The notes below the pieces were generated by a model. It did not search any database and was not told the origin of the DNA. It was given only the letters and a program-made list of their open reading frames with translations. A program made the translations under genes and the position numbers. 64,000 bases of DNA, from the NCBI GenBank assembly GCA_033762625.1, contig JANRLI010000005.1, forward strand, positions 99,954 through 163,953, given 5' to 3'. Shown here piece by piece: positions 14,531 to 63,050 of the stretch; the first letter of the stretch is position 1; each line of letters opens with the position of its first letter. The DNA is from Alphaproteobacteria bacterium (GTDB lineage: Bacteria; Pseudomonadota; Alphaproteobacteria; UBA9219; RGZA01).

Positions 14531-15631
14531 GTGACTGATTTACGCATTTCACAAGTTGATTTAAGCATCGGCGCCGACGAAGCCGAGCTGGTGCAGCAAT
14601 GCATTGATGCGCGCTGGCTATCGGAAGGACCGCATACCAAAGCTTTTGCCGAAAGTTTATTGGCGTTCACGGGTTCCAAATTTTTATCCTTTGCGCCGAA
14701 TGCAACCTTGGGGCTGTATCTGGCATTTCTTGCTTTAGATGCGCCGCCAGGTAGTGAAGTTTTAATTCCGAGTTATACATTCTATGGCTCGGCAACGGCG
14801 GCTGTGTTCGCAGGGCTTAAACCCGTTTTTGTCGATTGCAACCCAAAGACATTCAACAGTGATGTAGAGCATTTCAAGGCTGCGCTAACACCCAATACGC
14901 GGATCATGATGCCGGTGCATATCTATGGGCAATGCGCGGATATGACCGCATTGATGGCCTTTGCCAAGGAACATAAATTACTGGTACTCGAAGATGCTGC
15001 GCAAGCCTTGGGTGCAAAGCATAAAGGCCAACAAGCAGGCACATTTGGCGATATTGGCGTGGTGTCATTCTATTCCGATAAAACCATCACAACCGGCGAA
15101 GGCGGCATGTTGATGACGCAGCGTGAGGATCTGCATGCGAAGATAAGCCTGCTGCGTAACCAAGGCCGCCCGAATGCCGGAACATTCATTCATCCATCCT
15201 TGGGAATGAATTTCAGAATTACGGATATTCAAGCCGCTATTGGCCGCGCACAATTAAAAAAATTCGATGCCATTTATGCGGCCAAGGTTCATAAATGGAA
15301 TTTCTATGCCAACGCATTAAAGGGCGTGGGCGATCTGCGATTCATGGATGTGCATAAGGACAGCAATCTTATTGCCTTCCGTTTTCCGATTTTATCAAAG
15401 CACCGCGATGGCTTGATGAAAGCGATGCAGGATAAAGGTATTCAAACGCGCGGCTTTTTCTACCCCATGCATTTACAACCCAAATTGCGCAGCGAACCCG
15501 CCGCAACACTAGCGAACTGTGAAATGCTGTATGCGGAAGGCCAGTGCCTTCCCATCCATTTCCAGTTGCAAGACAGTGATTTGCAATTCATTTGCGGCAC
15601 CATCAAAGATTATTTCAAGCAAAATAGCTGA
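14531..15631 (+). CDS. DegT/DnrJ/EryC1/StrS-family PLP sugar aminotransferase
   Basis: 366 aa. Family layout with the catalytic-Lys region SFYSDKTITTGEGGML and motif EDAAQALGA. Confidence 0.85.
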   Translation: MTDLRISQVDLSIGADEAELVQQCIDARWLSEGPHTKAFAESLLAFTGSKFLSFAPNATLGLYLAFLALDAPPGSEVLIPSYTFYGSATAAVFAGLKPVFVDCNPKTFNSDVEHFKAALTPNTRIMMPVHIYGQCADMTALMAFAKEHKLLVLEDAAQALGAKHKGQQAGTFGDIGVVSFYSDKTITTGEGGMLMTQREDLHAKISLLRNQGRPNAGTFIHPSLGMNFRITDIQAAIGRAQLKKFDAIYAAKVHKWNFYANALKGVGDLRFMDVHKDSNLIAFRFPILSKHRDGLMKAMQDKGIQTRGFFYPMHLQPKLRSEPAATLANCEMLYAEGQCLPIHFQLQDSDLQFICGTIKDYFKQNS

Positions 15632-15633
15632 AC

Positions 15634-16377
15634 ATGCGCCCTTTCGTGCAGTATTATGATGCCATATATAGCGACAAGGATTACCACGCGGATGCAGAAA
15701 TTTTGCGCGGATTAGTGAAGCATGCGTCGCGCCCAAACATTCTGGAAATTGGCAGCGGTACGGGAAACCAATCATTACAATTATGCAAATGGGCAGATGT
15801 GACCGCGGTTGAAACCGATGCTGACTTTGCAGACGTGATGCAAAAAAAATGCGCCACGCAATCTGCGATTAAACTATTCCAAGGAGATATTGGAAAATTG
15901 GCCGCGCATGGTTTTGATGCCGCCGCGGCGTATTTCCATGTGGTGAATTACATACATGACGCGGATGCGCTTGCGCATTTATTCCGTGAAACCGCAAAAC
16001 GCTTAAAATCCAATGCGCCGTTCCTGTTCGATATGTGGCATGCCGAATGTGTGTTGGCAGACCCTCCACGCGATACAACGCGTAGCAAAGACTTTGATAA
16101 TTATCTGGGCAGTGGAATGGTTGTCCAAACCATTCTGCCGCAACTGGATGTTACAAGCCGTAAGGTAACATTAAATTACAAGATTGTACTTCAGGGTATC
16201 ACGGGCGTAGCGCCATTTACAGAAACGATACGCTTGCATCTGTGGCAGCAGAATGAAATAGTTGGTGTGCTGCAACGTGCGGGATTTACAGACGTGACAT
16301 TTTACGATGGTCGTTCGTATCCGCAGGCAGCAACTCCGCAAAGCTGGGCGCTGTGGGTTACCGCGCGCAAACAATAA
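15634..16377 (+). CDS. Class I SAM-dependent methyltransferase
   Basis: Motif I ILEIGSGTGNQS. Starts 3 nt after the upstream stop. Confidence 0.65.
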   Translation: MRPFVQYYDAIYSDKDYHADAEILRGLVKHASRPNILEIGSGTGNQSLQLCKWADVTAVETDADFADVMQKKCATQSAIKLFQGDIGKLAAHGFDAAAAYFHVVNYIHDADALAHLFRETAKRLKSNAPFLFDMWHAECVLADPPRDTTRSKDFDNYLGSGMVVQTILPQLDVTSRKVTLNYKIVLQGITGVAPFTETIRLHLWQQNEIVGVLQRAGFTDVTFYDGRSYPQAATPQSWALWVTARKQ

Positions 16378-16386
16378 GGGACTAAC

Positions 16387-16926
16387 ATGTTAAAACTCCA
16401 CCTTGGCTGCGGTAAAAAGAAACTGCCCGGATACGTGAATATCGATATTCTGGAAAATTCGGCAGCAGATGTGCATGCGGATTTGCGTGATTTGCCCTAT
16501 AAGCCCGAAAGCGTCGATATGATCTATTCCTGCGCGGCGATTGAACATTTCGGGCGCAATGAATGGATACCGCTGCTGCGCTATTGGGGAAGTTTGTTGA
16601 AACAAGGTGGCATGTTGCGCCTTTCCACCGCTGATTTCGATGCCTGTGTTGAGCAATATAAGCAGGATGAGAATCTACCCCAACTGCTTGGCCTTTTGAT
16701 TGGCGGGCAGAAAGATGATTATGACTGGCACGGCATGATATTCAATTTTGATGTCTTGAAAGCCGGATTAGAGGAAGCAGGATTTAAGGATGTGCGCCGT
16801 TATGATTGGCGCGAAACCGACATCGGTAAGGCAGGCATTGATGATTACAGCCAGGCCTATTTGCCGCATATGGATAAAACCAATGGTCGCTTGATGATGT
16901 TAAATGTGGAAGCCACCAAAAAATGA
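16387..16926 (+). CDS. Small SAM-dependent methyltransferase (type-11-like)
   Basis: LHLGCGKKKLPGYVNIDI ... DMIYSCAAIEHF pattern typical of short glycan-cluster methyltransferases. Confidence 0.55.
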   Translation: MLKLHLGCGKKKLPGYVNIDILENSAADVHADLRDLPYKPESVDMIYSCAAIEHFGRNEWIPLLRYWGSLLKQGGMLRLSTADFDACVEQYKQDENLPQLLGLLIGGQKDDYDWHGMIFNFDVLKAGLEEAGFKDVRRYDWRETDIGKAGIDDYSQAYLPHMDKTNGRLMMLNVEATKK

Positions 16927-18050
16927 AGCCGTACGTCACCATCTCCTTTGCCAATCGCAATGATAATTATGGCGGGTTTTTGGCTGAGCGCATCCAACTG
17001 TTCATTGATTACTACGCGCATTTCGTCAAACGCTGGCCCGACCTGTTTGAATTTGTGATTATTGATTACAACCCGCCTGCAGATAAACCCAAATTACGCG
17101 ATGCATTCGATTGGAGCGTTTTGGGCCATGTGATGTATTGCGAAGTGCCACCGGAAGTACACTTGCAAATTCCGGGCGCCAGTGTGCGCAAGATACAGGA
17201 TTACATCGCCCGAAACATTGGCCTGCGGTATGGCAGCGCACCCTTTGGCATGGTGCTTAATCAGGATATTTTTATCAGCAGTTCCATTTTGGAAGAAATT
17301 TCCAAAAAGCGTTTATCACCATTTCATTTTTATCGCGCCGATCGCTGCGATTTTAATTTAGATCCCTGCAAGGGAAAGCCCGCTGTTGAATTTGAAAAAC
17401 TGGCAGCAGAAAATACATTCGAAGTGCATCGCCGCCATGCCAGCAATTATCATGATATAAGTGTAAAAGTTGCGCCGGAAATATTGGCCAAAAGCGGGTC
17501 CGTTCCCGAACCCGGCGATACGTTAGACCCCAATAATAATGTGATTTATTGCACCTCGACCCGCACCCGCAATATTGAAGATCGATTGCTGTTTGGCAAA
17601 AAAACTGCCGCTGCGAGTGATCATTGGCGCGAGCAATGTTATTTTCACCCTAACTATTATGTGGCGATGTGTTTGCATACCAACGCATCGGGTGATTTTG
17701 TGATTGCGCCGAAGGAAGCATGGGAAAAAATCCACGGTTTTCCGGAAGATCCGAATTTTTATATGCAGACCGATGCCTATGGCGTATTCCAGCTCTTTGC
17801 AGCGGGGTACGATCAGGCGATATTCATGCAACCGCACCGCATTTATCATGCCGACCATGACCGTTCGGGCAGGGCAGGGTTTGTGGAGCCTGAATACATT
17901 GACCATGAAAAGCATTTCAACGAAATATTGAAAGGCAAGGCATCGTTCTGTTTTAATGATGCGAATTGGGGATTAAGCCACTATGCGCTGCGGTTTAAAA
18001 ACCACCCATGCCCAGAAACATTGCCAGCAAATTTCATTGTGGAAAAGTAG
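16923..18050 (+). CDS. Hypothetical protein of unknown function, translationally coupled (ATGA) within the sugar operon
   Basis: 375 aa. No family motif recognised by eye. Codon usage matches neighbours. Start overlaps the upstream stop. Confidence 0.4.
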   Translation: MKPYVTISFANRNDNYGGFLAERIQLFIDYYAHFVKRWPDLFEFVIIDYNPPADKPKLRDAFDWSVLGHVMYCEVPPEVHLQIPGASVRKIQDYIARNIGLRYGSAPFGMVLNQDIFISSSILEEISKKRLSPFHFYRADRCDFNLDPCKGKPAVEFEKLAAENTFEVHRRHASNYHDISVKVAPEILAKSGSVPEPGDTLDPNNNVIYCTSTRTRNIEDRLLFGKKTAAASDHWREQCYFHPNYYVAMCLHTNASGDFVIAPKEAWEKIHGFPEDPNFYMQTDAYGVFQLFAAGYDQAIFMQPHRIYHADHDRSGRAGFVEPEYIDHEKHFNEILKGKASFCFNDANWGLSHYALRFKNHPCPETLPANFIVEK

Positions 18051-18061
18051 TGGAGAAATAA

Positions 18062-18607
18062 ATGACGCATCCCGGTTCAACCTTGGAACACGGCAAGCTA
18101 AAGGTTGAAAAGACCAAGCTGGATGGCGTGTTGCTGATCCATCCGCCTACGCAGTTTTCGGATTTTCGCGGGCAATATGTGGAAACCTATAACCGCGAGC
18201 TTTACCACGCGGCGGGCATTACCGATGATTTTATTCAAGATGACGCATCGATTACCAAGAAACATGTGCTGCGCGGCATTCACGGCGATAATGTTACGGT
18301 GAAAATGATTTCATGCTTGGTGGGTGAAATTTATGTTGTGGTTGTTAATAATGACCCAGCATCGGCACAGTACCGCCAATGGCAAGGCTTCACGATTAAT
18401 GAAACCAATAATTTGCAAATCTATATTCCGCCAAAATTCGGAAATTCATTTGTGGTGTTATCGGATGTAGCGCTATTCCATTACAAACAAACGACGACGT
18501 ATAACCGCGCGGGGCAGTTCACGCTGATGTGGAACGACCCTGCATTGAACATTAAATGGCCGATTGAAAATCCGATATTATCGCAGCGCGATAGCGGAAA
18601 AAGTTAA
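18062..18607 (+). CDS. RmlC-like cupin (dTDP-4-dehydrorhamnose 3,5-epimerase / sugar ketoisomerase family)
   Basis: Motifs FSDFRGQYVETY and VLRGIHGD match the RmlC signatures F-D-RG and lRG-H. Confidence 0.6.
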   Translation: MTHPGSTLEHGKLKVEKTKLDGVLLIHPPTQFSDFRGQYVETYNRELYHAAGITDDFIQDDASITKKHVLRGIHGDNVTVKMISCLVGEIYVVVVNNDPASAQYRQWQGFTINETNNLQIYIPPKFGNSFVVLSDVALFHYKQTTTYNRAGQFTLMWNDPALNIKWPIENPILSQRDSGKS

Positions 18608-18610
18608 ATC

Positions 18611-19324
18611 TTAAATCGCTGCTTCCAGTTGTTCAAAGAAATGCACGAACAGTTCGTGTTCATGCGCGGCCAATTGCGGAATGGTCGCCTGTGCACTCGC
18701 ATCCAAAGCGGTTACGCTATCAAACATCTCTGCAAGATGCAGGTTTTCTTCAGCGATTAGCCCTTTCAGGCTGAGCGTCTTTTGATGCTCATGCAATACG
18801 CTTTGATATAGTCCATACGCCCAATGCGCGCGCAGTTCAATCATCAGCGACACCCATAAATAACACGCATCGTTTTTTTGGGGCGCGGTAATGCTGTGCT
18901 CAATAAAACTATCCAGCTTGCCGAAATACATTTTGGCGGCAGCGGGGGCGAGGGTAGTTGTTGATGAATAATCATCGAGCGGTCGTTTCAAAAGCGCTTC
19001 GGCCTTATGGCTGAAAAAATAGGCGTGGCGTGCTTCTTCCGCCATGTGTTTTAGAACTTCGCTATTCGGACTTTTGGTAATGTGCGAGAGCATGATTTTA
19101 CGGCTGCCAATATGCTCAAGCAGCGACAGCGTATTTAAAAAACGCCCATGCGTTTCATCGTTTTGAATAACGCGGGTAAGGAATGCGCGAAAACGCCCTT
19201 CAAGCGGCTGATTTAAGGCTTCCAGACCCGATAGCATCCAGGGCGTTGCCAATGACGCGTGTGATGCGGGCGAGGTGTTGCTCGCTAATGCAGTAGGGCG
19301 GGAGGACATAAACGGTATCTCCAA
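18611..19324 (-). CDS. Ferritin-like diiron-carboxylate protein (E / ExxH / E / ExxH) at the 3' end of the biotin operon
   Basis: Ligand pattern LLEH ... EEARH ... IELRAH ... EENLH on four predicted helices. Overlaps the bioA 3' end by 38-125 nt depending on start (alternatives 19309 or 19237). Confidence 0.5.
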   Translation of the reverse strand: MEIPFMSSRPTALASNTSPASHASLATPWMLSGLEALNQPLEGRFRAFLTRVIQNDETHGRFLNTLSLLEHIGSRKIMLSHITKSPNSEVLKHMAEEARHAYFFSHKAEALLKRPLDDYSSTTTLAPAAAKMYFGKLDSFIEHSITAPQKNDACYLWVSLMIELRAHWAYGLYQSVLHEHQKTLSLKGLIAEENLHLAEMFDSVTALDASAQATIPQLAAHEHELFVHFFEQLEAAI

Positions 19325-20468
19325 GTGGGCGAAGTAAAATATTGTTCGCTAAAAAATAAGTGTAAAGCTGCGACGCCACAGAAGATAGATAACCTTGCTC
19401 CTTATGGCAAATCTCGAATGCGATGATGGTGCCACATTGGCGCGGATTGCGGATTAACGGGTGGTTTTGCAATTGGTTAAGCTGCGCGGATTGCATGGCG
19501 CAAACATTCTTAATGATGCTGTCGGTATTATTTTCGCGCCATAGTTTGAGATTGGCCAGCGCCGCCGCGCAGGACAACGCATTGCCGGTATAGGATGATG
19601 AATGCCAGAAGGTTTTTGATTTATCTTTTTTATAAAATGCGTTGTAGATGGCATTGCTGCACAAGGTTGCGCCAAGCGGTAACAATCCGCCGGTAATTCC
19701 TTTTGATACGCACATGATATCAGGCGTTATGCCTGCCTGTTCGCACGCAAAACGCGTACCTGTGCGGCCAAAGCCCGTCATCACTTCATCGGCAATTAAA
19801 ATGATGCCATGCGCTGCGCATAAATCGGAAAGCGTTTTCAGAATTTCTGGCGTATACATTTTCATGCCGCCAGCGCCGAGTACCAAAGGTTCAAGAATTA
19901 GCGCGGCAATGTCGCTTCCATTCGTTTTCAATAATGCCTTGAATGCATCAACCATGCTGTTAAACGGCAGACGTTCAACTTTGAATAAAAAGGGTGCGTA
20001 GATTTCATTGAACACAGAAGGCGCGCCCGCAGCCATCGCGCCGAAGGTATCGCCGTGATAACCATGTTCAAGCGCGACAATCGTCTGGCGCGGTTTACCG
20101 TTATGCGCATGAACGCCAATTGCCATTTTCAGAGCTGCTTCAACAGCTGTTGAGCCACTGTCGGACAGGAACACATAGTCAAAAGCGTTATTGGTGAATT
20201 CCAGTAATTCTTTTGCAAGTTCTTCAGCGGGTGCGTGGGTAAAGCCTGCAAAAATCACCTGATCGAGCTTGGCCGCCTGTTCTTGCACGGCGTTGACAAT
20301 CGCGGGGTGGCAATGGCCGTGGGTGTTGACCCACCATGATGAAATGCCGTCGATAATCTCGCGGCCATCCTTGGTATATAGCGATGCGCCTGAAGCGCGA
20401 TCAATGAACACTTCGCTATCTTGCAGCGCGTGCTGGGTAAACGGATGCCAGAGCGGAGAAGGGGTCAT
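19200..20468 (-). CDS. bioA: Adenosylmethionine-8-amino-7-oxononanoate aminotransferase
   Basis: 422 aa class III aminotransferase. BioA N-terminus ...LWHPFTQH. PLP Lys region CVSKGITGG. Confidence 0.9.
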   Translation of the reverse strand: MTPSPLWHPFTQHALQDSEVFIDRASGASLYTKDGREIIDGISSWWVNTHGHCHPAIVNAVQEQAAKLDQVIFAGFTHAPAEELAKELLEFTNNAFDYVFLSDSGSTAVEAALKMAIGVHAHNGKPRQTIVALEHGYHGDTFGAMAAGAPSVFNEIYAPFLFKVERLPFNSMVDAFKALLKTNGSDIAALILEPLVLGAGGMKMYTPEILKTLSDLCAAHGIILIADEVMTGFGRTGTRFACEQAGITPDIMCVSKGITGGLLPLGATLCSNAIYNAFYKKDKSKTFWHSSSYTGNALSCAAALANLKLWRENNTDSIIKNVCAMQSAQLNQLQNHPLIRNPRQCGTIIAFEICHKEQGYLSSVASQLYTYFLANNILLRPLGDTVYVLPPYCISEQHLARITRVIGNALDAIGSGSLKSAA

Positions 20469-21085
20469 ATAAAATCACTTTTATTGAAATTGCTGTTAAA
20501 TAGTTCGGTCAGTGATGCCGCAGAAATTTCGTTAAGTACGGGAATATGGCCCAATAGTTTTGCCATAGAAAAATCGATGATGGTTTTGATGGTGTCCTTG
20601 TTTTCGGGCCCAAGAAAAATGATGCCGTGCAAGGGAATACCATGCACCTTTAGTGCCTGCACGGATAATAAAGTATGATTAATGGTTCCAAGTTCGGTTC
20701 GCGCGCACAGAATAACCGGGGCGTTCATTTGTTTGAACACGTCAATCATCAGCACGGTGCGCGTGACGGGAACCATCAATCCGCCTGCGCCTTCAATCAA
20801 TAACGTGCGCGGTGTATGGGGCGGTTTTAGCTTGGCGATATCAATTACGCGGCCTTCGCTTTCCGCTGCAATATGCGGGGAAGCGGGCATTTCAAAGGAG
20901 TACACTTCATTATGAAAACGGTTGGCGGGAAGTTGGGTGAGTTTGCGCAGTGTGTTGGTGTCGGTTTCCGTGCCGCTTTGAACCGGTTTCCAATAATCGG
21001 CATCAAGCCCAAGCATTAGCATGGCAGAGGTCAGCGTTTTGCCAATGCCCGTTCCGGTTCCTGTGATAATAAATTTTTTGCTCAT
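20465..21085 (-). CDS. bioD: Dethiobiotin synthetase
   Basis: Start placed at M5 (MSKKFIITGTGTGIGKT P-loop), which gives an ATGA overlap with the bioF stop. The stop overlaps the bioA start (ATGA). Confidence 0.85.
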   Translation of the reverse strand: MSKKFIITGTGTGIGKTLTSAMLMLGLDADYWKPVQSGTETDTNTLRKLTQLPANRFHNEVYSFEMPASPHIAAESEGRVIDIAKLKPPHTPRTLLIEGAGGLMVPVTRTVLMIDVFKQMNAPVILCARTELGTINHTLLSVQALKVHGIPLHGIIFLGPENKDTIKTIIDFSMAKLLGHIPVLNEISAASLTELFNSNFNKSDFI

Positions 21086-22170
21086 GCAATTTCCCACAAG
21101 GCTTTGCCAAGCGCGGTTACATCTTCCTTGCGCAAGCTGGCATTGAGCGTGATGCGAAGGCGCGATGAACCATTGGGCACGGTGGGCGGGCGAATGGCGC
21201 GAACATCAAACCCTTTGGCTTGCAAAGCCATGGCTGCGGCCAGCGCTTTTTGCTCCTCCCCCAAAATATAGGGGATGATAGGCGTGGGTGATGGCGGGGA
21301 TGGAAAAACATTGCGCGCCAAATCACACAGCGCGAATAAATAGGCGCGTTGCTCATCAGCAGCGGCGCATAGTTGCAATGCTTTGCTAACCAATAGGGCT
21401 TGCAGCGGCATGGGCGCGGTTGAATAAATGAATGGCCGCGCTTTATTGATAAGGGTTTCTATGATTTCTGAAGATGCGCAAACAAGCGCCCCCGCAACGC
21501 CCAATCCCTTACCGCAGGTATGCAGCGTGATGAGGTTTGGCGAATGCAGCCCAAAGGTCAGCCCTTTGCCTTTTTCACCGAATACACCTGTGGCGTGCGC
21601 TTCATCCACTACCAACATCGCATTATATTTTTTACAAAGGTTGATGAGGTCAGCAAGTGGCGCAAAATCACCATCCATGCTGTAAATGCTTTCCACCACT
21701 ATCCAGCAGGTCTTACCGGAATTATTTTTTAGATTTTCTTCAAATGCATTCACATCATTGTGCGGGATGCGGATATGTTTGGCGGGGTTGCTTTGAATGC
21801 CATCACGCAAACTGGCATGGATAAGCCCATCAAATAAAATTATATCATGCGATGCGGGCAGTGCAGTCATCAGCGCATGGTTTGCCGAAAAACCGCTACT
21901 GAAAAATAATGCCTGCTCACATCCAAAAAATTCTGCGGCTTCATGTTCCAATTGTTCATGCGCGGGATGATTGCCGCGCAGCAGGCGTGAACCGCCCGAA
22001 CCGATATCTAGCCCGTTTTGCAGTGCTTCCATGGCGCAAGCGCGCAGCGCCGGATGCGTTTTAAACCCCAAATAGTCATTCGAAGTAAAATCTATGCCCA
22101 TGGCTGGTGAAAGGGCGCGAAAACGGCCTTCTTCCTTCAGCCTAGACAGGGTTGCAGAGTAACGGTTCAT
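21082..22170 (-). CDS. bioF: 8-amino-7-oxononanoate synthase
   Basis: 362 aa alpha-oxoamine synthase. PLP Lys region HTCGKGLGV. Sits in a bioF-bioD-bioA operon. Confidence 0.85.
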   Translation of the reverse strand: MNRYSATLSRLKEEGRFRALSPAMGIDFTSNDYLGFKTHPALRACAMEALQNGLDIGSGGSRLLRGNHPAHEQLEHEAAEFFGCEQALFFSSGFSANHALMTALPASHDIILFDGLIHASLRDGIQSNPAKHIRIPHNDVNAFEENLKNNSGKTCWIVVESIYSMDGDFAPLADLINLCKKYNAMLVVDEAHATGVFGEKGKGLTFGLHSPNLITLHTCGKGLGVAGALVCASSEIIETLINKARPFIYSTAPMPLQALLVSKALQLCAAADEQRAYLFALCDLARNVFPSPPSPTPIIPYILGEEQKALAAAMALQAKGFDVRAIRPPTVPNGSSRLRITLNASLRKEDVTALGKALWEIA

Positions 22171-22223
22171 GTCCTAATAATAGGGAAACATTTTAAAACC
22201 ATCCAGAACCATTCAATAATCAC

Positions 22224-23198
22224 ATGCCAGATTGCACTATTTCGAATTCACCCACCCGTCATGACTGGACGGTTGCCGAAATTCAGGCTTTGCTTGAATT
22301 GCCGCTGTTTGAATTATTAGACCATGCGCGCGCGGTTCACCGTGCGCATCAGCCGAATGATGTGCAACTTGCAAGTCTGCTTTCGATTAAAACCGGCGGG
22401 TGCCCCGAAGATTGCGGCTATTGCCCGCAAAGTGCGCATCATGCCAAGGAAACCGGTGTTGCCAAAGAACGCCTGATGCAAGTTGATGCCGTATTGGAAA
22501 AAGCACGTGCGGCCAAGGCAGCTGGCGCGGCGCGGTTTTGCATGGGCGCGGCATGGCGCGAAGTTAAAGACGGCGCAGAATTCGATGCGGTATGCAAAAT
22601 GGTCGAAGGCGTGCGCGAATTGGGTATGGAGGCCTGCGTGACCTTGGGCATGCTTAAGCAACATCAGGCTGAAAAACTGAAGGCAGCAGGTCTTACCGCA
22701 TATAACCATAACCTTGATACATCGCCGGAATTTTACGGCAATGTGATAACGACACGTGATTACGATGACCGTTTGCAAACCTTATCGCATGTGCGTGATG
22801 CGGGCATTACGGTATGTTGCGGCGGTATTATCGGCATGGGTGAGACCACGCATGACCGCGCTAGCTTATTGCAGACCCTTTCAAACCTGACGCCGCATCC
22901 CGAAAGTGTGCCCATCAACGCATTGGTTGCTGTGAAAGGAACGCCGCTGGAAAAACAAAAGCCTGTTGATCCAATTGATTTGGTACGCATGGTGGCGGCT
23001 GCACGTATTACCATGCCAAAGGCGCGTGTGCGGCTATCGGCAGGGCGTTCAACTCTGAGCCGCGAAGCGCAGTTATTGTGTTTGCTCGCGGGTGCAAATT
23101 CATTCTTCTACGGCGAAAAACTACTGACCACGCCAAATAACGATACAATTGCTGATCTGGAATTGCTCAAAGTTGCTGGCCTTGCAGCGAGCGCATAA
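22224..23198 (+). CDS. bioB: Biotin synthase (radical SAM)
   Basis: [11 protein letters not shown] radical-SAM cluster motif. Transcribed divergently from bioF. Confidence 0.9.
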
Positions 23199-23210
23199 AA
23201 CCAAGGCATA

Positions 23211-23240
23211 AAAAAAGGGCGGCTAGTGCCGCCCTTTCTA
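23211..23240. terminator. Bidirectional rho-independent terminator between bioB and the convergent downstream gene
   Basis: aaaaaaa-gggcggc-tagt-gccgccc-tttctatt. 7-bp GC stem flanked by an A-run and a T-rich tract. Confidence 0.65.
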
Positions 23241-23255
23241 TTGATACTGTGTAAG

Positions 23256-23843
23256 TTATCCAGCGATGTTTTGCGATACCATGCAATACAGCATTGGCAG
23301 GGACAAAACGAAGTTGGTACGTGAGGCTAGCATCGCGGTGCGGGCAGCCTTTGCTTTTGCTGCATCGTCAACGGTTACGATGCCCAATGCTTTTTGCTGG
23401 TTTGGCCAGATGATAAACCAGACGTTTGCAGCCATAATAAGTGCAAGCCACATGCCGATGCCGATGGTGCGGCTGCCTTCCAGGGTTAGCGCGCTGACGA
23501 GATAACCTTTGATATAGGCAACCAGCAAACCAGTTACAACGGTTGCAAGCGCAGACCAGCGGAACCAGAATAAGGCTTCTGGTGCAATGAATTTGCCAAC
23601 CGCTGGTTTCAGTTCAGCAGGGATTTTCGGCATGGTGGGGATTTGCACAAAGTTGAAGTACCACAGCAAGCCAATCCACAAAATGCCGCATACGACATGC
23701 AGCCACACTGCGACATTGATGTGCAGCGTTACCATTTGTGCGGCGTCATTCATCAGGTTACTGTGCAATCCAAATAATGCTGCAAGGGCCAGCACGACGC
23801 TTAAGCCTAAAGCAGGGTAAAGTTTTTCAAGAATTTTTGTCAT
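23256..23843 (-). CDS. Conserved integral membrane protein of unknown function (HemJ/PuuD-like topology with conserved His/Trp)
   Basis: 195 aa, ~5 TM. Motif HINVAVWLHVVCGILWIGLLWYFNF. Confidence 0.35.
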   Translation of the reverse strand: MTKILEKLYPALGLSVVLALAALFGLHSNLMNDAAQMVTLHINVAVWLHVVCGILWIGLLWYFNFVQIPTMPKIPAELKPAVGKFIAPEALFWFRWSALATVVTGLLVAYIKGYLVSALTLEGSRTIGIGMWLALIMAANVWFIIWPNQQKALGIVTVDDAAKAKAARTAMLASRTNFVLSLPMLYCMVSQNIAG

Positions 23844-23943: not shown

Positions 23944-24654
23944 TTAAATAAGGCTTTCAAAATAACTTTTGCGTTCATTAAAATACGACATTAGCGCCGT
24001 GCGTGCATCTTTGGACAGCAGCGATGTGGGCACGAAAATATCTTCTTTCACAACGCGCAGGATTTTTTCATAACCAAGTTGCGCGAGCAGTTCCACAAGA
24101 CCTTCCTGCACGGGCTCGTTTTCACATAATATAACGGGCTGCATGCGGCGCAGTGTTTCAACACCGCCGCGCACGACGTTCAATTCCCAACCCTGCACAT
24201 CCATTTTGATAAAATTAATCTCGGATATCTTAATGCTATCCAGCGTTTTTAAATCGGCGGTGGTGGATGTCGCGCTGCGGTTTTCAAACGTGCCAAATGA
24301 ACCTGCGCCGCTATTGTGCACATCGCCTGGCATGTAAAACGATTTTTGCGTAATGGTATCGGAAAGGCCGAAGGGATAGATAATCGCATTCCTGTCTGCC
24401 AGATTTTTACGCAGACATTCCACATTTTCCTTTCGCGGTTCAAAGCAGATGACTTTTTTGAATACAGTTGAAAGCGGTCGTGCCCATAACCCCACATGTG
24501 CGCCGATATCCAGTGCGCAATTCAGCGGTATATTGATGGCGCGGCAAACGCCCACCCCCATTTCCCGCTGCAAAATTTGGTAATCCCCATGTGCAAGAAA
24601 CGACTGGAAATGCGTTTCATCATCAGGGAAATAATAGCCGTATTCCAATTTCAT
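23944..24654 (-). CDS. FkbM-family SAM methyltransferase
   Basis: ALDIGAHVGLWARPLS ... VICFEP pattern characteristic of FkbM. Confidence 0.65.
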   Translation of the reverse strand: MKLEYGYYFPDDETHFQSFLAHGDYQILQREMGVGVCRAINIPLNCALDIGAHVGLWARPLSTVFKKVICFEPRKENVECLRKNLADRNAIIYPFGLSDTITQKSFYMPGDVHNSGAGSFGTFENRSATSTTADLKTLDSIKISEINFIKMDVQGWELNVVRGGVETLRRMQPVILCENEPVQEGLVELLAQLGYEKILRVVKEDIFVPTSLLSKDARTALMSYFNERKSYFESLI

Positions 24655-32990: not shown

Positions 32991-34012
32991 TGTCCAGCGT
33001 TGCGGGAAGACTGGAATTCCCGACAGCGCTGGCTGAAGTATTACGGGCAAGCCCATGTGATATCGTCATTACTGGTGGCGGCGGGTGGATAGGGCAGGCA
33101 GCGCTTGAAATGTTGGAAAGCGCGCTGGGCGATGATGTATTGAAACGAGTTTCGGTGTTTGGTTCATCTGCGCGTGATTTAACGCTGCGTTCCGGTCGTA
33201 CTATTCCTTGTTTAGCGCTGGAGCATATTCGTGTGCTGGAAGCAGGTCCAAAGCTGTTTTTCCATTGCGCATTCTTGACCAAAGACCGTTTGCTGGGTCA
33301 AAGCGTTGATGCATTCATCGCCGGCAACACGGTGATTAGTGATTGCGTTGCAGCAGCCATTGAACGCAGCGATGCGCGTGGCATCTTTATGCCATCATCC
33401 GGCGCTGTGTATAAGCGCGACCGCTCTGTTCCGCCAAGTGGCGGAACAACCGCGACTACGCGAGAGCTTGATGACGATATGCAGGCTAATCCCTATGGGG
33501 TGATGAAGCATCAGGATGAAGAGCGGTTTTTGCAAATTGCCAAGCAAAAAAACATACCGGCATGTATTCCGCGCCTGTTTAATTTATCTGGCCCGTTCAT
33601 CAATAAAATCGAACTCTATGCACTGGCATCGATGATTGCATCGTGCATGGGCGGAAAGGAAATTACCATCCACGCGCCACACCGTGTTTTTCGTTCATAT
33701 ATTCATGTGGCTGATTTGGTGGCGCTGGGGTTTGCCATGCTGCTCAACTCCAAAAAAGACGATGTGCCTGTGTTTGATACAGCCGGCGAAGAAGTAGTGG
33801 AACTGACCGCGCTTGCCGAAAAAATCCGCGAGGTAATGGGCAAGCCCCAAACGCCAATTTGCCGCCCTCATATCATCACCGATAAAGATGATGTGTATGT
33901 AGGGAATAGCAAGCCGTTTAACCAGATGATGGACCATCACGGATTGACATTACGCAGCATTGATGTGCAAATTCGGGACACCGCCGCCTATCTTGCTAGC
34001 TTAATCAAATGA
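32990..34012 (+). CDS. NAD(P)-dependent sugar epimerase/reductase (extended SDR)
   Basis: CDIVITGGGGWIGQAALEML Rossmann motif. TAATG-coupled to rfbH. Confidence 0.65.
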   Translation: MSSVAGRLEFPTALAEVLRASPCDIVITGGGGWIGQAALEMLESALGDDVLKRVSVFGSSARDLTLRSGRTIPCLALEHIRVLEAGPKLFFHCAFLTKDRLLGQSVDAFIAGNTVISDCVAAAIERSDARGIFMPSSGAVYKRDRSVPPSGGTTATTRELDDDMQANPYGVMKHQDEERFLQIAKQKNIPACIPRLFNLSGPFINKIELYALASMIASCMGGKEITIHAPHRVFRSYIHVADLVALGFAMLLNSKKDDVPVFDTAGEEVVELTALAEKIREVMGKPQTPICRPHIITDKDDVYVGNSKPFNQMMDHHGLTLRSIDVQIRDTAAYLASLIK

Positions 34013-35055
34013 CACCCCAGCTTCCTGACGAACACCAGATTTATCCAGCGGCTTCGAATCCTTTTTATATCGTTGCGCCGCCTTATGTGCGCATATCGGC
34101 GGGTGTTCGCGTGCTGCATTTGCTGTGTCACAGTTTGAATAAGTTGGGTCATACGGCATATTTGCTCATGTACCCTGCGATGCCGTGGCGCGAGCACCAA
34201 ATCTGCCCAGATTTGATGACGCCTGTTTTGAATCACGATATCGTCAAAAGTCATTTTGACCGCGGCCTTACCCCTATCATGGTCTATCCGGAAACGGTAA
34301 CTGGAAATCCATTTAACAGCCCATGCGTTGTGCGGTATGTACTCAATTTCCCGGGATTGCTGGGCGGTGATAAAATATATGCCGAAAATGAATTATGTTT
34401 CAGCTATGGCGAAGTGCTGGCATCGCATACACGCAACCCTACGAATATTTTATTTTTACCAGCGATTGACACGCGTACTTATCACCCGCCTGCGGCGGGA
34501 CAAAAACGCAGCGGCACCTGCTTTTATGCGGATAAATATCAGGTAGCGCATCAAGGCAAGCTATTTGACATTACCAAGGACAGCATCGAAATCACACGAA
34601 ATAAGCCTGATAGCCAAACACCACAGCAAATCGCCGAACTATTCCGCAAAAGCGAATTATTTTACGTGTATGAAAACACCGCGCTGGCAATTGAAGCGGT
34701 GTTGTGCGGTTGCCCGGTTGTGTTTTTACCCAATGAACATCTTAGTGATATGATCGCTGTCAAGGAAATCGGCAAGGATGGGTATGCGTGGGGCGCTGAT
34801 CCTGCTGAAGTTGCCAGAGCAAAGGCAACGGTTGAGCAAGGTGCGCAGAATTATTTAAACAGTTATAAAACCTATTGGGAAGATCTGGATAAATTCATCC
34901 AGCAGTCTAAAGCGCATGTTGCAGGCAAGCCTTATACTACCATGATCACCCTGCCAAATACCTTTGATGTGATACGACAGTCTTATTATGACCGTGGTCC
35001 AGCCCGTTTCTTCCAATTGGTATTACGCCGCCTGCGAGAACTTTTAAAAATATAA
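34009..35055 (+). CDS. Hypothetical protein, possible unclassified glycosyltransferase
   Basis: 348 aa. No recognised motif. ATGA-coupled to the upstream reductase. Confidence 0.35.
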   Translation: MTPQLPDEHQIYPAASNPFYIVAPPYVRISAGVRVLHLLCHSLNKLGHTAYLLMYPAMPWREHQICPDLMTPVLNHDIVKSHFDRGLTPIMVYPETVTGNPFNSPCVVRYVLNFPGLLGGDKIYAENELCFSYGEVLASHTRNPTNILFLPAIDTRTYHPPAAGQKRSGTCFYADKYQVAHQGKLFDITKDSIEITRNKPDSQTPQQIAELFRKSELFYVYENTALAIEAVLCGCPVVFLPNEHLSDMIAVKEIGKDGYAWGADPAEVARAKATVEQGAQNYLNSYKTYWEDLDKFIQQSKAHVAGKPYTTMITLPNTFDVIRQSYYDRGPARFFQLVLRRLRELLKI

Positions 35056-37005: not shown

Positions 37006-37881
37006 TTGCATGCAGTGCCGTTAAAAAATCCCGTTTTCTATTATTTTTCCGCTGTTTTGCTTGTAGTTTTGCTAGGCAATTCATACAAAGAAAAATATAC
37101 TTACCGGCTTCTTGGCATCACCGTGATGCTTTTTCCCCTAATGGATGCGCGCTGCTTTATGAAATTCGAAGATTATTCCCATACGTTTTTGCATTTTCAT
37201 ACAACAGAAGTGCCAGCGATATTAAAAAAATACCTTTCGGGCAATGTTGGGCTCGTGGATTTGGGGGCGGGCGATGGCAACTTGCTTATATCCCTAAAAA
37301 CCGCAGGCCTGCTGGATCAGTTTTCCAAAGTTGTTGCCGTTGAACTATCCCAAGAACGCTGCGAGCGGCTTCGCACCTATACCAATTTCAAAGTCATCTG
37401 CGGGGATGCCACCAATGTCAGCGAGCTGGAACCAGAAAGCTTTGATTTTGTTTTATGCACGCAGGTGATCGAACACGTGGATGAAGCCAAACTGCTTGCG
37501 CAAATTTCAAAGCTATTAAAGCCGAATGGTACCGCCTATATCGCATCGCTGATTAAAGAAAAGCATGGCTGGTGGTATTATCGTACGGCGGATGGCAAAT
37601 GGGCATTAGACCCCACCCATTTGCGCGAATATGAATCAGTCGAGCAATATGAAGCAGTGATTAAAAAGGGCGGATTTACCATTGTAGAAACAGTAACCAG
37701 CCGTTTGGAACTTTCAATCATTGAGTTTGTGCTGCGTAGAATTGTCGTTCCGCTGTTCAAGCCGGAGCATATTCACAGCTTCTTTATTCAATATCCATTT
37801 GCAGACTGGATACGCAGGCATTTTAACGTGCGCCCGCCCGGTTACCATATTGTTGAAACCATCGCGAAAAAAGCACAATGA
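37006..37881 (+). CDS. Class I SAM methyltransferase
   Basis: VDLGAGDGNLLISL motif I. The true start may be a downstream internal Met. Confidence 0.6.
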   Translation: MHAVPLKNPVFYYFSAVLLVVLLGNSYKEKYTYRLLGITVMLFPLMDARCFMKFEDYSHTFLHFHTTEVPAILKKYLSGNVGLVDLGAGDGNLLISLKTAGLLDQFSKVVAVELSQERCERLRTYTNFKVICGDATNVSELEPESFDFVLCTQVIEHVDEAKLLAQISKLLKPNGTAYIASLIKEKHGWWYYRTADGKWALDPTHLREYESVEQYEAVIKKGGFTIVETVTSRLELSIIEFVLRRIVVPLFKPEHIHSFFIQYPFADWIRRHFNVRPPGYHIVETIAKKAQ

Positions 37882-38330: not shown

Positions 38331-40688
38331 ATGTTATCTAGGTTATTTCAAACACTGGCAACCACAGCGGTTTCCAAACTAAGCAAAGCTTATCTGTGGG
38401 TTGGCAGTGCATTCAAGAAACATACCCGATTGTCTGCGGATGATTTAAGCATTGTCGGCGCTTATTGCGCAGCCATGGGCTTGGCAAGCTGGTCTATTTT
38501 CCGTTGGCTGTCGTTTGTTGCAGCGGATATTTCCTTTGAGTGGAATAGCGGTGTTGGCCCCACGCAGATCATCTTTAATACCACATTAATTACTTATGCA
38601 ATTTTGGTGTGTTCGGTAATCGGTCTCGTTGCGTTGCTATGGGTATGCGAAGCGTTACCTTTCATGCGCCGTTTACTGGTACGGCTTGCCAACGCCTGCT
38701 CGGTGCTGCTGTTGCTGTGTTCATGTGCGGCGGTATTTATTACATCTTTGGTAATCGCGCGGATTTATTTTATTATTACATTCCTGGTTTTTGTGCCGCA
38801 TGCGGTGTGCTTCTTTAAAAGTCAGACTGTGATTATGATGAAAAATCATTCCAGTGGCTTTATTCGATATGCCATGCCGTTAGTGTTATTTGTGCCGCTC
38901 GCTCTGGCATTCGCACTTGCCATCAAAGCGTGGTTTCCGGTGCAAATTCCGAATGATTATATTGAAGTAGCCGATACGGTGGTGTTGCATGGAAAGGATA
39001 ATGTGCAAACAAAGACCATTAGCCGCTCCGATGCTGTGGATTGCATGGAGGCGGCCAAGTACCCAGATAGCAATTCAAAATCGAATGGTTCACAACTAAA
39101 GCCGCAGATAAAAAAATCTGCCAAGGATGATGCCAGCATTCCCAGATGCCGTTTTGATATATCGTCAACCCAGTTACAGAAGCTATATGAACCTGTTCTT
39201 AAAACGGGTACATGGCAAGCGCAGGCAGGGCGTTTATTATATCATCACTCGTACGTATTTGTTCCTGCTATTCATGCGCTTCACTATGGGTTGGCGTCAC
39301 CCATTCCTTATCTTTACGGTCTTGGCAACACGTTGTTTCATGCCGCATTGCTGCATCTGACATCGCCTACCCTGACCAGCTATTTTGACACTTACCCGAT
39401 TGCGCAATTGACGGGCATTTTGTGTATTATGTTATTGATTTCGTATATCTCGCGTAACAGCTATGCGGCCGTGGCCGGGTTAAGCGTTGTACTCGTTGCC
39501 TTGTTTCAGTTGAAGTTTGAATTTGTGTTATTGCCACCTGGCTTTAGCCCGCTGCGCTATGCGGGGTTGGCACTGCAAGTTGCATCGATTTTTCTTTTAT
39601 TCCGAGGGACCTCGCTTTTACGCCCGTTTGGCATGATGCTGGCGCTTGCAGCCTCATTTTTCTGGAATGCAGAATATGCGATGATTGGCGCTGTTGGGCA
39701 GGGCATGGCATTGGTATCGCCGCAATACCGAATATCCGCATGGGGGCGTTTTGGCTTTCTGGGCTTGGCAGCATTGATCGCTGTTGGCGGCATGGTTGGA
39801 AATGGCTGGTATTCTACAGGTTACTTGCAGGGAATGGCGTTGGGGCTGTTTGGCCTTTTCCCGATGTTACCGACGAACTATTTCCTGGTGCTTTGCGCGC
39901 TGGTTGCTACGGGAATTGGGTTGCTTATATATGCGACAAAGCAATTTACGGCTAGTGAAGCGATGGCCCGCCTATGCGTGTTGCCTATTATGGCGTTATT
40001 GGTTGTTAAGTTCCTTTTCTATGCATTGGCCGTACATCTTTTCTATAGCATGATGTTTATAGTGCCGCTCGTACTGACATATATTGATTGGTCGAACCGT
40101 CGTCATTCATCGGTGACTGTTAACCGCCGCTGGATGGAGGCATCATTTGCGGCTAGTTTCGCGTTGCTGGCCTTTATTAACTCCATTACCTATTATTCAA
40201 GCGCACTTAAGTTCCGTGAAATCATGTCGGATCCATTTGGCACTTATCAGTGGTCAGGAATTGGCGAGCACTTTAACACCAATATTCCCCCTGAACCGAT
40301 TGTTAGCCGCGTTGAAGCGGTGCGCTCACAATTGCGTGCGGGGGATAGAGTGTTGTTCCTGTCGCCGTTTGATCATCTGCTATCCTTTTATACCAATCCC
40401 CAGCATTACTGCGGACATTTTGAAATCGTGTTAAACCCAATAACAACAAAAATGGTGCGGTCACTTGTGGACTGTGCGCGTGATTCCACGCAGCTGTTAA
40501 TAGTATATGACGAGGCGGAAAGATACGCATGTCCTGATGGATGGCGCGCGCAGTATTATGATAGGCCTTCATGCGAGTATAAACGAAATCTCAAGCAAAA
40601 CGCGCTGACCATATTACGCGCGCTGGGTGATGATATTGTTCCGGTCACAAAAATCGGGCCGCTTACTTTTTACCGAAAAAACCATTAA
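38331..40688 (+). CDS. Large polytopic membrane protein (>=12 TM) with a C-terminal soluble domain; candidate GT-C glycosyltransferase
   Basis: 785 aa. Hydrophobic throughout with a ~170 aa hydrophilic C-terminus. Sits immediately after gtrA. Confidence 0.45.
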   Translation: MLSRLFQTLATTAVSKLSKAYLWVGSAFKKHTRLSADDLSIVGAYCAAMGLASWSIFRWLSFVAADISFEWNSGVGPTQIIFNTTLITYAILVCSVIGLVALLWVCEALPFMRRLLVRLANACSVLLLLCSCAAVFITSLVIARIYFIITFLVFVPHAVCFFKSQTVIMMKNHSSGFIRYAMPLVLFVPLALAFALAIKAWFPVQIPNDYIEVADTVVLHGKDNVQTKTISRSDAVDCMEAAKYPDSNSKSNGSQLKPQIKKSAKDDASIPRCRFDISSTQLQKLYEPVLKTGTWQAQAGRLLYHHSYVFVPAIHALHYGLASPIPYLYGLGNTLFHAALLHLTSPTLTSYFDTYPIAQLTGILCIMLLISYISRNSYAAVAGLSVVLVALFQLKFEFVLLPPGFSPLRYAGLALQVASIFLLFRGTSLLRPFGMMLALAASFFWNAEYAMIGAVGQGMALVSPQYRISAWGRFGFLGLAALIAVGGMVGNGWYSTGYLQGMALGLFGLFPMLPTNYFLVLCALVATGIGLLIYATKQFTASEAMARLCVLPIMALLVVKFLFYALAVHLFYSMMFIVPLVLTYIDWSNRRHSSVTVNRRWMEASFAASFALLAFINSITYYSSALKFREIMSDPFGTYQWSGIGEHFNTNIPPEPIVSRVEAVRSQLRAGDRVLFLSPFDHLLSFYTNPQHYCGHFEIVLNPITTKMVRSLVDCARDSTQLLIVYDEAERYACPDGWRAQYYDRPSCEYKRNLKQNALTILRALGDDIVPVTKIGPLTFYRKNH

Positions 40689-40706: not shown

Positions 40707-42320
40707 ATGTCAGGCATAACGACGCTCCCTCGCAAATGGATATGGTTCTGGATTACAGCACTGCTTGTTGCGGGTTCGGTAGCGGTTTGGCATCACATGC
40801 CCATCATGCCGGATGAAATTGCCATACGCGTTCAAGCGGGCAGATTTATTCAGGATCAGGGAATGGCAACCGGGCTTTTCGCATTATGTGCCAACCGGTT
40901 GCAAGCCGTACCGGGGATTTTTATTCCTTCAGCATGGCTATTATCATTGGGCGATCTCGCTTTCTCGCCGATTGATTTGCGCGTTATATCCATTAGCGCC
41001 TTGGTGTTATGCGCTGTTATTGCAATGCGGGGTGCTTTTAAAAATGCCAATCATGCAGCAATGCTTTGGATGGTTGCTGCATTTTTGGGTGTATCCGGTT
41101 CAACGCTGGTATTTTTCCGCTTCGAAGTTTTTTTGATCATCCATCTTTGCTTGTGTATGACAGCGTTACAGGTGCTCAAAAAAAATCAACCTGGAATCTT
41201 GCATCTGGTGTTAACAGGCGCGCTGCTTTTTAGCCTGCTCACCATGGGGTATGTTCACCCGCAAGCATTTCTGTTTATCCCTTTAACTGCTTATTTGTGC
41301 TACAGGCTAATATGTGGAACGCGTATTGACGTGGTTAAACTGTTTATTGGTCTTGCGCTGTTTGCAGGTATCGCGGTGACCATTCATTTCTTTTTTCAAT
41401 TGTCATGCGTTGGACATAAAGAAATCGAAATCTTTTGGGGTGAAATGATTTTTGATATGTCGCGATTGGTATCGGCTGATTTTTTCAATATTATAAAAGA
41501 AAAATTCAAGCTCTTTGCATTTTCATTTACATACAACGATTCCTATACCATCGGCTATTTGCCAGGCATTACCAAGGATATGTTTGCAGCGCGAGGCATT
41601 CTAAATGCGGCTATTGTTATTGGTTTGTTGATGGTGATGGTAACAGGCGTAATGCTGGGATGCGCCTATGTATATCGCTTTGTTGCAATATACATCCTGC
41701 GCCGTCAACAACCGGCAGGGTTTGATTTGGATGCCGCGGTAGGATTCAGTTTTATCTTTTTTCCTTCGCTGTTTTATTTACTTTACGATGCGCATCTTTA
41801 TTTTTACCGGTCTTTTATCATAAATTTTTTATTCGTTATTGCTGTGGTCATCGGCCTTTCCACGATTGATAACAAACTACTCAAGACAATAACTGCCTAC
41901 GCGGGAGGGGTTTTATGTCTTGTTTGTGCATTTTCCATTTACACAAATTTTGCCTATTTTTATAAACCCATACAAACCTATGAGGGCCCTTCTGCATCGC
42001 TAGATCGCGATTGGGCACACGCACCTGAACGGCTAAACCGTTTTGCCCAGAGCTGCGGGATTGATTTGACCAAAGGCGGCGGGATTATTGATGATGTTAC
42101 CTATGAGGGGGTGAAGCAGTACCCGCGTGTCTATCAAATTACCTACCTTGGGCTACAAATGGGGCTTGCTAAGATAAAGCCTGAAACGGTAATAACCACT
42201 TTAAAGCCTAATTATGTATTGGCGCGCTGCAGCGAAATGGAAGCGATAGGGCTTGGTTGGCCGGCTGATAAGCAAGAAGGCGATCTTTGCTGTAAACGCT
42301 ATAGCCCCGCGTCAGAATAA
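40707..42320 (+). CDS. Polytopic membrane protein, candidate GT-C glycosyltransferase (GtrC-like)
   Basis: 537 aa, multi-TM. Acidic first-loop motif MPDEIAIR typical of GT-C catalytic DE/DD loops. Confidence 0.45.
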   Translation: MSGITTLPRKWIWFWITALLVAGSVAVWHHMPIMPDEIAIRVQAGRFIQDQGMATGLFALCANRLQAVPGIFIPSAWLLSLGDLAFSPIDLRVISISALVLCAVIAMRGAFKNANHAAMLWMVAAFLGVSGSTLVFFRFEVFLIIHLCLCMTALQVLKKNQPGILHLVLTGALLFSLLTMGYVHPQAFLFIPLTAYLCYRLICGTRIDVVKLFIGLALFAGIAVTIHFFFQLSCVGHKEIEIFWGEMIFDMSRLVSADFFNIIKEKFKLFAFSFTYNDSYTIGYLPGITKDMFAARGILNAAIVIGLLMVMVTGVMLGCAYVYRFVAIYILRRQQPAGFDLDAAVGFSFIFFPSLFYLLYDAHLYFYRSFIINFLFVIAVVIGLSTIDNKLLKTITAYAGGVLCLVCAFSIYTNFAYFYKPIQTYEGPSASLDRDWAHAPERLNRFAQSCGIDLTKGGGIIDDVTYEGVKQYPRVYQITYLGLQMGLAKIKPETVITTLKPNYVLARCSEMEAIGLGWPADKQEGDLCCKRYSPASE

Positions 42321-59511: not shown

Positions 59512-59774
59512 TGGTTTTTTAGACCCTTCTTATTGAAATCAATGATGGATGTTGGATTGACCCCCGCCGTGCTTTTTTAAAATGTGCAACCGATGAGGTT
59601 GGAATAAGCGGCTGGGTTCGTGGGGTAACAGGTCAATAATGTTTTCATGCCAGTATGATGCTGCGAATGCGAAAAGCTGTCAAGAAAACTATCTTTTTCA
59701 TGGTTATTTTAGGCTTAATCATTAGAACAAAAGCAGATAATTCGCCTGATAAAAGCTGTGCATAAAATAAATGA

Positions 59775-61277: not shown

Positions 61278-61323
61278 GACGATTTCCGGTTTCTATGCAA
61301 GAATTGTTCCAATTCGGAAAATC

Positions 61324-62121: not shown

Positions 62122-62123
62122 GG

Positions 62124-63047: not shown

Positions 63048-63050
63048 CGG

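Follow-up and report, generated by a model that had tools for sequence, protein, structure and literature searches.

At the end of the bioF-bioD-bioA operon in an alphaproteobacterial genome lies a gene whose product is probably (we put the chance at roughly 0.8) a divergent BioE orthologue. BioE is a non-heme diiron oxygenase of ferritin-like fold with which biotin synthesis starts. The gene was found in a stretch of 64,000 nucleotides (NCBI GenBank assembly GCA_033762625.1, contig JANRLI010000005.1, positions 99,954 to 163,953), hereafter the window. An original prediction, made from the sequence alone, had described it as a ferritin-like open reading frame (ORF) that closes the operon, with bioB divergent, and had proposed that a diiron oxidase could supply the pimeloyl moiety by cleaving an acyl-acyl carrier protein (acyl-ACP) in the manner of BioI. 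The ORF list together with Pfam and NCBIfam matches confirmed this layout, and homology to BioE supports the proposed chemistry as a predicted function. The route was also thought to be previously undescribed, which is not so: the BioE pathway was published in December 2025 (PMC12704756, PMC12915131), and the deduction thus matched a route whose experimental demonstration was only months old. What is new relative to the published work is a clade of BioE homologues in Alphaproteobacteria, a class described as BioZ users in both BioE papers, in line with PMC7645780 and PMC8024396.

Homology to characterized BioE proteins

Pimeloyl-forming activity of BioE has been shown for the proteins of Elizabethkingia meningoseptica (EmBioE), Chryseobacterium indologenes (CiBioE) and Chlamydia psittaci (CpBioE) (PMC12704756, PMC12915131). 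The first two are ferritin-like non-heme diiron oxygenases, and BioE cuts C14-C18 acyl-coenzyme A (acyl-CoA) or acyl-ACP at C7-C8, yielding pimeloyl-CoA/ACP and a Cn-7 acid; it complements E. coli delta-bioC/H only when O2 is present (PMC12704756). Each of the EmBioE ligands E26, E53, H56, E125, E155 and H158 is essential in mutagenesis, the cyanobacterial aldehyde-deformylating oxygenase (cADO) was named as the closest structurally characterized relative, and BioE is regulated by the MocR-type repressor BioL (PMC12704756). Residues F24, R31, K32, R87, Q88 and H91 of EmBioE were proposed to bind the phosphopantetheine headgroup of CoA or ACP. CpBioE is reported to be monomeric and ACP-specific and is without BioL, and the Chlamydia and Elizabethkingia enzymes, the latter dimeric, differ in carrier specificity and oligomeric state (PMC12915131). 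A census at >40% identity to EmBioE recovered only Bacteroidota families, Burkholderiaceae and Chlamydiaceae (PMC12915131), and no alphaproteobacterial BioE is mentioned in PMC12704756 or PMC12915131.

To place the window protein relative to these enzymes, a profile of its alphaproteobacterial family was searched against 1.84 billion representative proteins, which returned 687 clusters at 50% identity (E <=0.001). A Sphingobacterium oryzagri protein among them (P0232, profile E 3e-39) has its ligands exactly at the EmBioE positions, and a second homology search seeded with this protein returned E. meningoseptica proteins. One of the latter, P0327, carries L22, F24, E26, R31, K32, E53, H56, R87, Q88, H91, E125, E155 and H158 as published; its locus also has the layout given in the papers, with a GntR-plus-aminotransferase gene (bioL) pointing away from bioE-bioF-bioD, and with bioB-bioA coming after the latter. 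Because both residue numbering and locus arrangement match the papers, P0327 is EmBioE or trivially different from it. The published residue positions of C. psittaci BioE had no match among the retrieved proteins.

By these sequence comparisons, homology to BioE is clear though distant. BLASTP aligned the window protein to P0327 at 29% identity over 199 residues (E 8e-26) and to the Sphingobacterium BioE at 31% identity (E 1e-29), and hhalign of the alphaproteobacterial family (alignment A1) against the Bacteroidota BioE family (alignment A3) gave 99.9% probability with an E value of 6e-35 over 198 columns. All six ligands are invariant across both clades, as are R46-K47 (EmBioE R31-K32) and the pocket residues L37, Y126 and I133 (EmBioE L22, Y117 and I124). 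The headgroup position R87 of EmBioE is conservatively changed to K102 in the window protein.

Iron ligands and predicted fold

The ligand set E, ExxH, E, ExxH named in the original prediction is real, and corresponds to E41, E68-x-x-H71, E134 and E164-x-x-H167 in the numbering of a 208-residue product, which is used throughout. In alignment A1, which holds 33 alphaproteobacterial homologues with 44-87% identity to the window protein, all six ligands are invariant together with H30, H42, H64, E193 and the S45-R46-K47 motif. The alphaproteobacterial clade additionally shares a conserved N-terminal PW-x-x-SG motif, which the Bacteroidota BioEs do not have. Two members of the alignment (P0004 and P0009, 83-87% identical) carry an insertion of 19-24 residues (…SLCERSPVASEH…) before the third ligand helix; it lies between the third and fourth helices at about columns 199-222, and the window protein is without it.

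An AlphaFold2 model built on the homologue alignment is wholly helical, with a predicted local distance difference test (pLDDT) score of 92.3 and a predicted template modelling (pTM) score of 0.90, and it places the ligands on four separate predicted helices (residues 27-51, 59-83, 121-150 and 158-178). When the family profile was compared with PDB sequences, cADO ranked first (E 0.0045), and Foldseek with the model gave weak ferritin-superfamily matches only. As modelled, the fold is ferritin-like and nearest to aldehyde-deformylating-oxygenase-like proteins, as reported for BioE. Among Pfam and NCBIfam families none matched the window protein above threshold, and the sole match, to aldehyde decarbonylase, stayed below threshold (14.5 bits for PF11266, whose cut-off is 28, and 14.4 bits for TIGR04059, whose cut-off is 222.65). 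The copies of Pfam and NCBIfam that were searched contain no BioE model, and BioE-like genes are currently annotated as ‘hypothetical’.

Some family members are instead automatically labelled ‘rubrerythrin’ or ‘bacterioferritin’, and the weak Foldseek matches include bacterioferritins and Dps-like proteins, as would be expected if the gene encoded a generic ferritin-like protein (a rubrerythrin, a bacterioferritin or a Dps-like protein of iron or peroxide stress) that stands beside bioA by chance. We consider this extremely improbable. Rubrerythrin and ferritin models of Pfam and NCBIfam gave no match to the window protein at E up to 0.1, rubrerythrin being the unrelated family that the original prediction had itself raised as a competing assignment; the only weak family match is the aldehyde decarbonylase, and the Foldseek E values against ferritins were all >0.1. 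The adjacency to bioA is likewise not a matter of chance, since it recurs in 75/78 genomes and in distant clades, as described below. Synteny and BioE homology together effectively refute the rubrerythrin or ferritin reading.

Association with biotin operons and other pimelate routes

Scanning one genome per GTDB species revealed at least 145 genomes that encode a relative, and the best 80 loci of these were examined. All 80 are alphaproteobacterial, from Micavibrio, Defluviicoccus, Asticcacaulis, Caulobacteraceae, Nitrospirillum, Rhizomicrobium/Micropepsaceae and unclassified Rhodospirillales. The BioB, BioF, BioD and BioA proteins of the window were then used as tblastn queries against these loci, 78 of which had enough upstream sequence. 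In 75 of the 78, bioA is located upstream of the BioE-like gene, directly adjoining it in nearly every case and otherwise no more than about 1 kb away, with bioB-F-D-A-X (X being the BioE-like gene) as the usual order. More distant members of the family follow the same trend, four of five sampled being in bio operons, in the orders bioB-F-D-X-A (twice), bioA-X (once) and bioB-F-D-A-X (once). The family does track bio operons, a point that the original prediction had left to be checked.

The operon itself had been said to lack bioC, bioH, bioG, bioZ, bioW and bioI. This is borne out, and can be extended to the whole window: most of its substantial ORFs were scanned with Pfam or NCBIfam, and among these there was no FabH/BioZ, no BioH/G/J/K/V-type hydrolase, no P450 (BioI) and no BioW. 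When the other ORFs in and around the 80 operons were clustered, none of the recurrent families was FabH-like or GntR, nor was any a methyltransferase, a hydrolase, a P450 or a ligase. Two generic S-adenosylmethionine (SAM) methyltransferases in the polysaccharide cluster of the window were considered as BioC and rejected, with scores of 34 and 55 bits against the BioC cut-off of 185. None of the BioC candidates at 15634-16377, 16387-16926, 23944-24654, 37006-37881, 43968-44597 and 48476-49348 comes near that cut-off, and most lie in polysaccharide clusters.

A bioBFDAZ operon has been published for some alphaproteobacteria (PMC7645780, PMC8024396). Because the BioE-like gene fills the 3′ end of bioFDA, which is the slot of bioZ in that arrangement, we infer that the BioE-like protein replaces BioZ as the pimelate source in this lineage. 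One alternative hypothesis is that the protein serves a late step of biotin synthesis as an accessory factor, for example as an iron or oxygen helper of BioB or BioA, and that pimelate is provided by bioZ or bioC/bioH elsewhere in the genome. A BioB auxiliary protein, BsaP, does exist in mycobacteria (cited in PMC12704756), alphaproteobacteria are described in the literature as BioZ users (PMC7645780), and our search for pimelate genes covered 64 kb of this genome. A helper would nevertheless have to be reconciled with strong homology to a demonstrated pimeloyl-forming enzyme, with retention of the full catalytic ligand set, with occupation of the bioZ slot and with the finding that no FabH-like gene recurs in the 80 loci, which makes such a role very unlikely.

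Other features of the related loci were also apparent. Recurrent neighbors in the 80 loci resemble dnaA, dnaN and recF (sequences read, no family search), and in many Micavibrio-like genomes the bioB-F-D-A-BioE operon is apparently placed between dnaA and dnaN-recF, the usual chromosome-origin cluster (L006, L007, L013, L016, L020 and about 30 more loci; example ORFs are L007 10688-11803 and 11804-12949, and L006 2207-3643). Downstream of the BioE-like gene there is a DnaN-like ORF of 371 aa in 37 loci and a RecF-like ORF in 25, and a DnaA-like ORF precedes bioB in 23. In four Micavibrio-like loci bioB and bioF are separated by a TetR-like gene that runs on the other strand (L036 5948-6547, L037 4724-5341, L042 5340-5975 and L055 5385-6035) and that may regulate the operon locally where neither BioL nor an obvious BioR site exists.

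Proposed mechanism and weighing of the evidence

The mechanism that we propose is drawn from the characterized BioEs, and operon anatomy, homology, residue conservation, fold and synteny come from the present analysis. The substrate, drawn from fatty-acid synthesis, would be a saturated acyl-ACP of long chain length (about C14-C18), or perhaps an acyl-CoA. The diiron site of the enzyme, held by E41, E68, H71, E134, E164 and H167, would act with O2 and a cellular reductant to oxidize and cleave the C7-C8 bond, with pimeloyl-ACP/CoA and a free Cn-7 fatty acid as the expected products. BioF would then condense the pimeloyl thioester with alanine, after which BioA, BioD and BioB would complete biotin.

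Several observations weigh against the assignment as a BioE orthologue. Identity to the characterized BioEs is 28-31%, under the 40% cut-off of the published census. The proposed headgroup contacts F24, Q88 and H91 of EmBioE are replaced by L39, M103 and G106 respectively; CpBioE too differs at several headgroup positions (K102, Y103 and D106). Compared with the characterized BioEs, the linker between helices 3 and 4, which leads into the third ligand helix, is shorter by 6-9 residues. There is no BioL regulator gene beside the window operon; BioL is also missing from Chlamydia (PMC12915131), and therefore does not define BioE itself. In terms of synteny, three of the 78 loci (two Nitrospirillum and one Rhizomicrobium) have the gene away from bio genes, and a distant member of the family, P0200 (L081 6001-6645), is likewise outside them. 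Finally, the search for bioZ and bioC/bioH in this genome covered the 64-kb window.

The three unlinked alphaproteobacterial genes (L062 10001-10600 and L068 10001-10603 in Nitrospirillum, L072 10001-10585 in Rhizomicrobium) are free of bio genes over 10 kb to each side. The convergent neighbor in L062 (Nitrospirillum amazonense) resembles an alpha/beta hydrolase, with the motif GHSLGG, and a TetR-like regulator comes after it, as judged from reading the sequences only. P0200 keeps the ligand motif, and its neighbors are chemotaxis genes and a pyridine-nucleotide disulfide oxidoreductase. The wider family may therefore include members that are unlinked to biotin synthesis.

Differences from EmBioE raise the further possibility of a BioE-family, biotin-dedicated diiron oxygenase whose substrate or chemistry is unlike that of EmBioE and CpBioE. 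Such an enzyme could use another chain length or carrier, or an unsaturated or hydroxylated acyl chain, or could release free pimelate that then needs activation. The high divergence, the several altered headgroup-contact residues, the shorter inter-helix linker and the extra PW-x-x-SG motif would all be compatible with a changed reaction, and the two characterized enzymes EmBioE and CpBioE are already unlike each other in carrier and assembly. However, the ligands, the R-K motif and the pocket residues are conserved with EmBioE, neither BioW (pimelate-CoA ligase) nor any other accessory gene recurs in the 80 loci, and a place beside bioF, bioD and bioA fits a direct supplier of the BioF substrate, so that we judge different chemistry to be improbable. 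For the divergent clade as a whole, it is conceivable but unlikely that it forms a functionally distinct subfamily, unlike the three characterized BioEs in substrate, carrier or reaction outcome. A divergent BioE orthologue remains our preferred identification of the window protein.

Start codon and overlap with bioA

The ORF at 18611..19324 on the minus strand is open for 237 aa from TTG 19324, which is the length given in the original prediction, and has a further in-frame start at ATG 19309. This length is probably wrong, and the true start is likely ATG 19237, which gives a product of 208 aa. The NCBI annotation of the same protein from this metagenome-assembled genome (P0001, 100% identical) is 208 aa and starts at ATG 19237, and this codon is kept in the four closest genomes. 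Additionally, the 208-aa numbering places the first ligands at E41, E68 and H71, identical to the numbers published for C. psittaci BioE. ATG 19309 has a GGAGA motif 8 nt upstream and sits within the conserved bioA motif GDTVYVLPPY; because it is inside a strongly conserved bioA segment, its own conservation is uninformative on the start. ATG 19237 is thus preferred over both upstream starts, although the choice is not proven.

With this start, the overlap with bioA is 38 nt (19200-19237) and not 125 nt, and most related loci show a comparable overlap. The original prediction had taken overlap with the bioA 3′ end to indicate co-translation. The overlap stands at its reduced length, and it suggests coupling but does not show it; from its position, the BioE-like gene may be translationally coupled to bioA.

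Gene calls and surroundings of the operon

The features of the operon are summarized in Table 1. The product of bioF is the presumed consumer of the pimeloyl thioester.

Table 1. Coordinates of the biotin genes and of predicted functional sites in the window
Feature	Position	Strand	Basis or remark
BioE-like ferritin-like diiron oxygenase gene (predicted)	18611..19237, including stop	-	208 aa from ATG 19237
Six predicted iron-ligand codons, span	18739..19119	-	Alignment conservation and match to EmBioE ligands
Predicted ligand codons, first bases	E41 19117, E68 19036, H71 19027, E134 18838, E164 18748, H167 18739	-	
Arg46-Lys47 motif codons, first bases	19102, 19099	-	
bioA (adenosylmethionine-8-amino-7-oxononanoate transaminase)	19200..20468	-	TIGR00508 521 bits and NF004624 548 bits, both above cut-off
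bioD (dethiobiotin synthase)	20465..21097	-	TIGR00347 128 bits (cut-off 83); PF13500
bioF (8-amino-7-oxononanoate synthase), first gene of the operon	21082..22170	-	TIGR00858 best family, E 1e-107 (360 bits, below the strict equivalog cut-off of 426); operon position agrees
bioF/bioB divergent intergenic region, 53 nt	22171..22223	.	Sequence read; presumed promoter/regulatory region, from position only
bioB (biotin synthase), divergent from the operon	22224..23198	+	TIGR00433 390 bits (cut-off 225); Radical_SAM and BATS domains

Regulatory signals were sought by several means. The BioR box (TTATMKATAA) has five one-mismatch matches in the window against six expected, and the spacer between bioB and bioF contains none. 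When 18300-23400 was scanned for promoters and terminators, match counts stayed close to those of shuffled sequence (within about one standard deviation), and promoter-like matches around the spacer likewise did not exceed the shuffled frequency. A GntR/MocR gene (bioL) adjoining the operon was found neither in the window nor as a recurring neighbor in the 80 related loci.

Adjoining bioB is a gene for a 195-aa membrane protein (23256-23843, minus strand) whose sequence matches the N-terminal domain of urate oxidase (PF06181, E 1e-14); the gene keeps its place beside bioB in the four closest genomes (L001 4653-5240 and its equivalents in L002-L004). On both sides of the bio operon, at 14531-18607 and 23944-50498, extends a large O-antigen-like region of sugar-nucleotide and polysaccharide genes. 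These code for DegT-type aminotransferases, a dTDP-sugar 3,5-epimerase, CDP-glucose synthesis, glycosyltransferases, several methyltransferases, WbqC and a NeuD-type acetyltransferase. To the right of the operon, the neighbors (the epimerase and ORFs of 375 and 179 aa) are also conserved in L002-L004, the closest genomes. Four sizeable ORFs of the polysaccharide region matched no Pfam family (E limit 1e-5, or 0.1 for the 375-aa ORF), namely 38331-40688, 40707-42320, 16923-18050 and 34009-35055, of 785, 537, 375 and 348 aa respectively. Further along, at 58858-63779, is an ordinary cluster of rpoN (sigma-54), a ribosome hibernation factor gene (S30AE family), lptB, an LptA-like gene and lptC.

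Implications for biotin-precursor synthesis

The alphaproteobacterial clade, at 28-31% identity to characterized BioEs, is outside the published census and holds the operon position of bioZ, and more divergent members of the family sit in bio operons of other gene orders. The clade occurs in at least 145 alphaproteobacterial species, from groups such as Micavibrio, Defluviicoccus, Asticcacaulis and further lineages of Rhodospirillales or Caulobacterales type. BioE-type pimelate synthesis may be far more widespread than reported. If the predicted activity is true, annotation of the biotin pathway would need a BioE model, and the distribution of pimelate routes that do or do not need O2 could be set beside lifestyle throughout the class. 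Likewise, H30, H64 and E193, which besides the ligands are invariant across distant clades, would become targets for dissecting the ten-electron mechanism.

Comparison with known systems

EmBioE and CiBioE (PMC12704756) share with the window protein full-length homology, the same six ligands and a cADO-like ferritin fold. The ligand spacing within helix pairs is 27 and 30 residues in both, the R-K motif follows the first ligand, and the pocket L, Y and I are kept. In genomic context, the gene is inside a bio cluster with no other pimelate gene nearby. The window protein differs from them in its low identity (28-29%), in about 15 extra N-terminal residues, in a shorter linker between helices 3 and 4 and in replacement of the equivalents of F24, Q88 and H91. 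Its gene is the last in bioF-D-A-E, whereas that of EmBioE is the first in bioE-F-D, the operon is without an adjacent BioL (MocR-type) gene, and the host is an alphaproteobacterium and not a member of the Bacteroidota.

CpBioE (PMC12915131) was compared by its published residue numbers. Its first ligands E41, E68 and H71 are numbered identically, and the N-terminal length is therefore the same as in the window protein; in both cases the bio gene cluster is compact and has no bioL. The second-half ligands are offset by 6, being E140, E170 and H173 in CpBioE versus E134, E164 and H167 in the window protein.

Sequence similarity to cADO (PF11266) is marginal, as the sub-threshold score given above indicates. 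The cADO enzyme makes an alkane from a fatty aldehyde by taking off C1, and to our knowledge its gene is not found in bio operons. For BioI of Bacillus subtilis (cytochrome P450 CYP107H1), the analogy drawn in the original prediction is one of function; BioI has a heme-thiolate cofactor, a P450 fold and no homology to the window protein.

A counterpart in terms of genomic position is BioZ (PMC7645780, PMC8024396), which has the same last operon slot after bioA, the same presumed role in supplying pimeloyl-ACP and the same bacterial class. The two proteins are unrelated in fold and chemistry: BioZ is a thiolase-fold, FabH-like 3-ketoacyl-ACP synthase III that condenses glutaryl-CoA with malonyl-ACP, whereas the window protein is predicted to be a four-helix-bundle diiron oxygenase. 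The routes also differ in what they draw upon, the BioZ route depending on lysine catabolism and the BioE route on O2.

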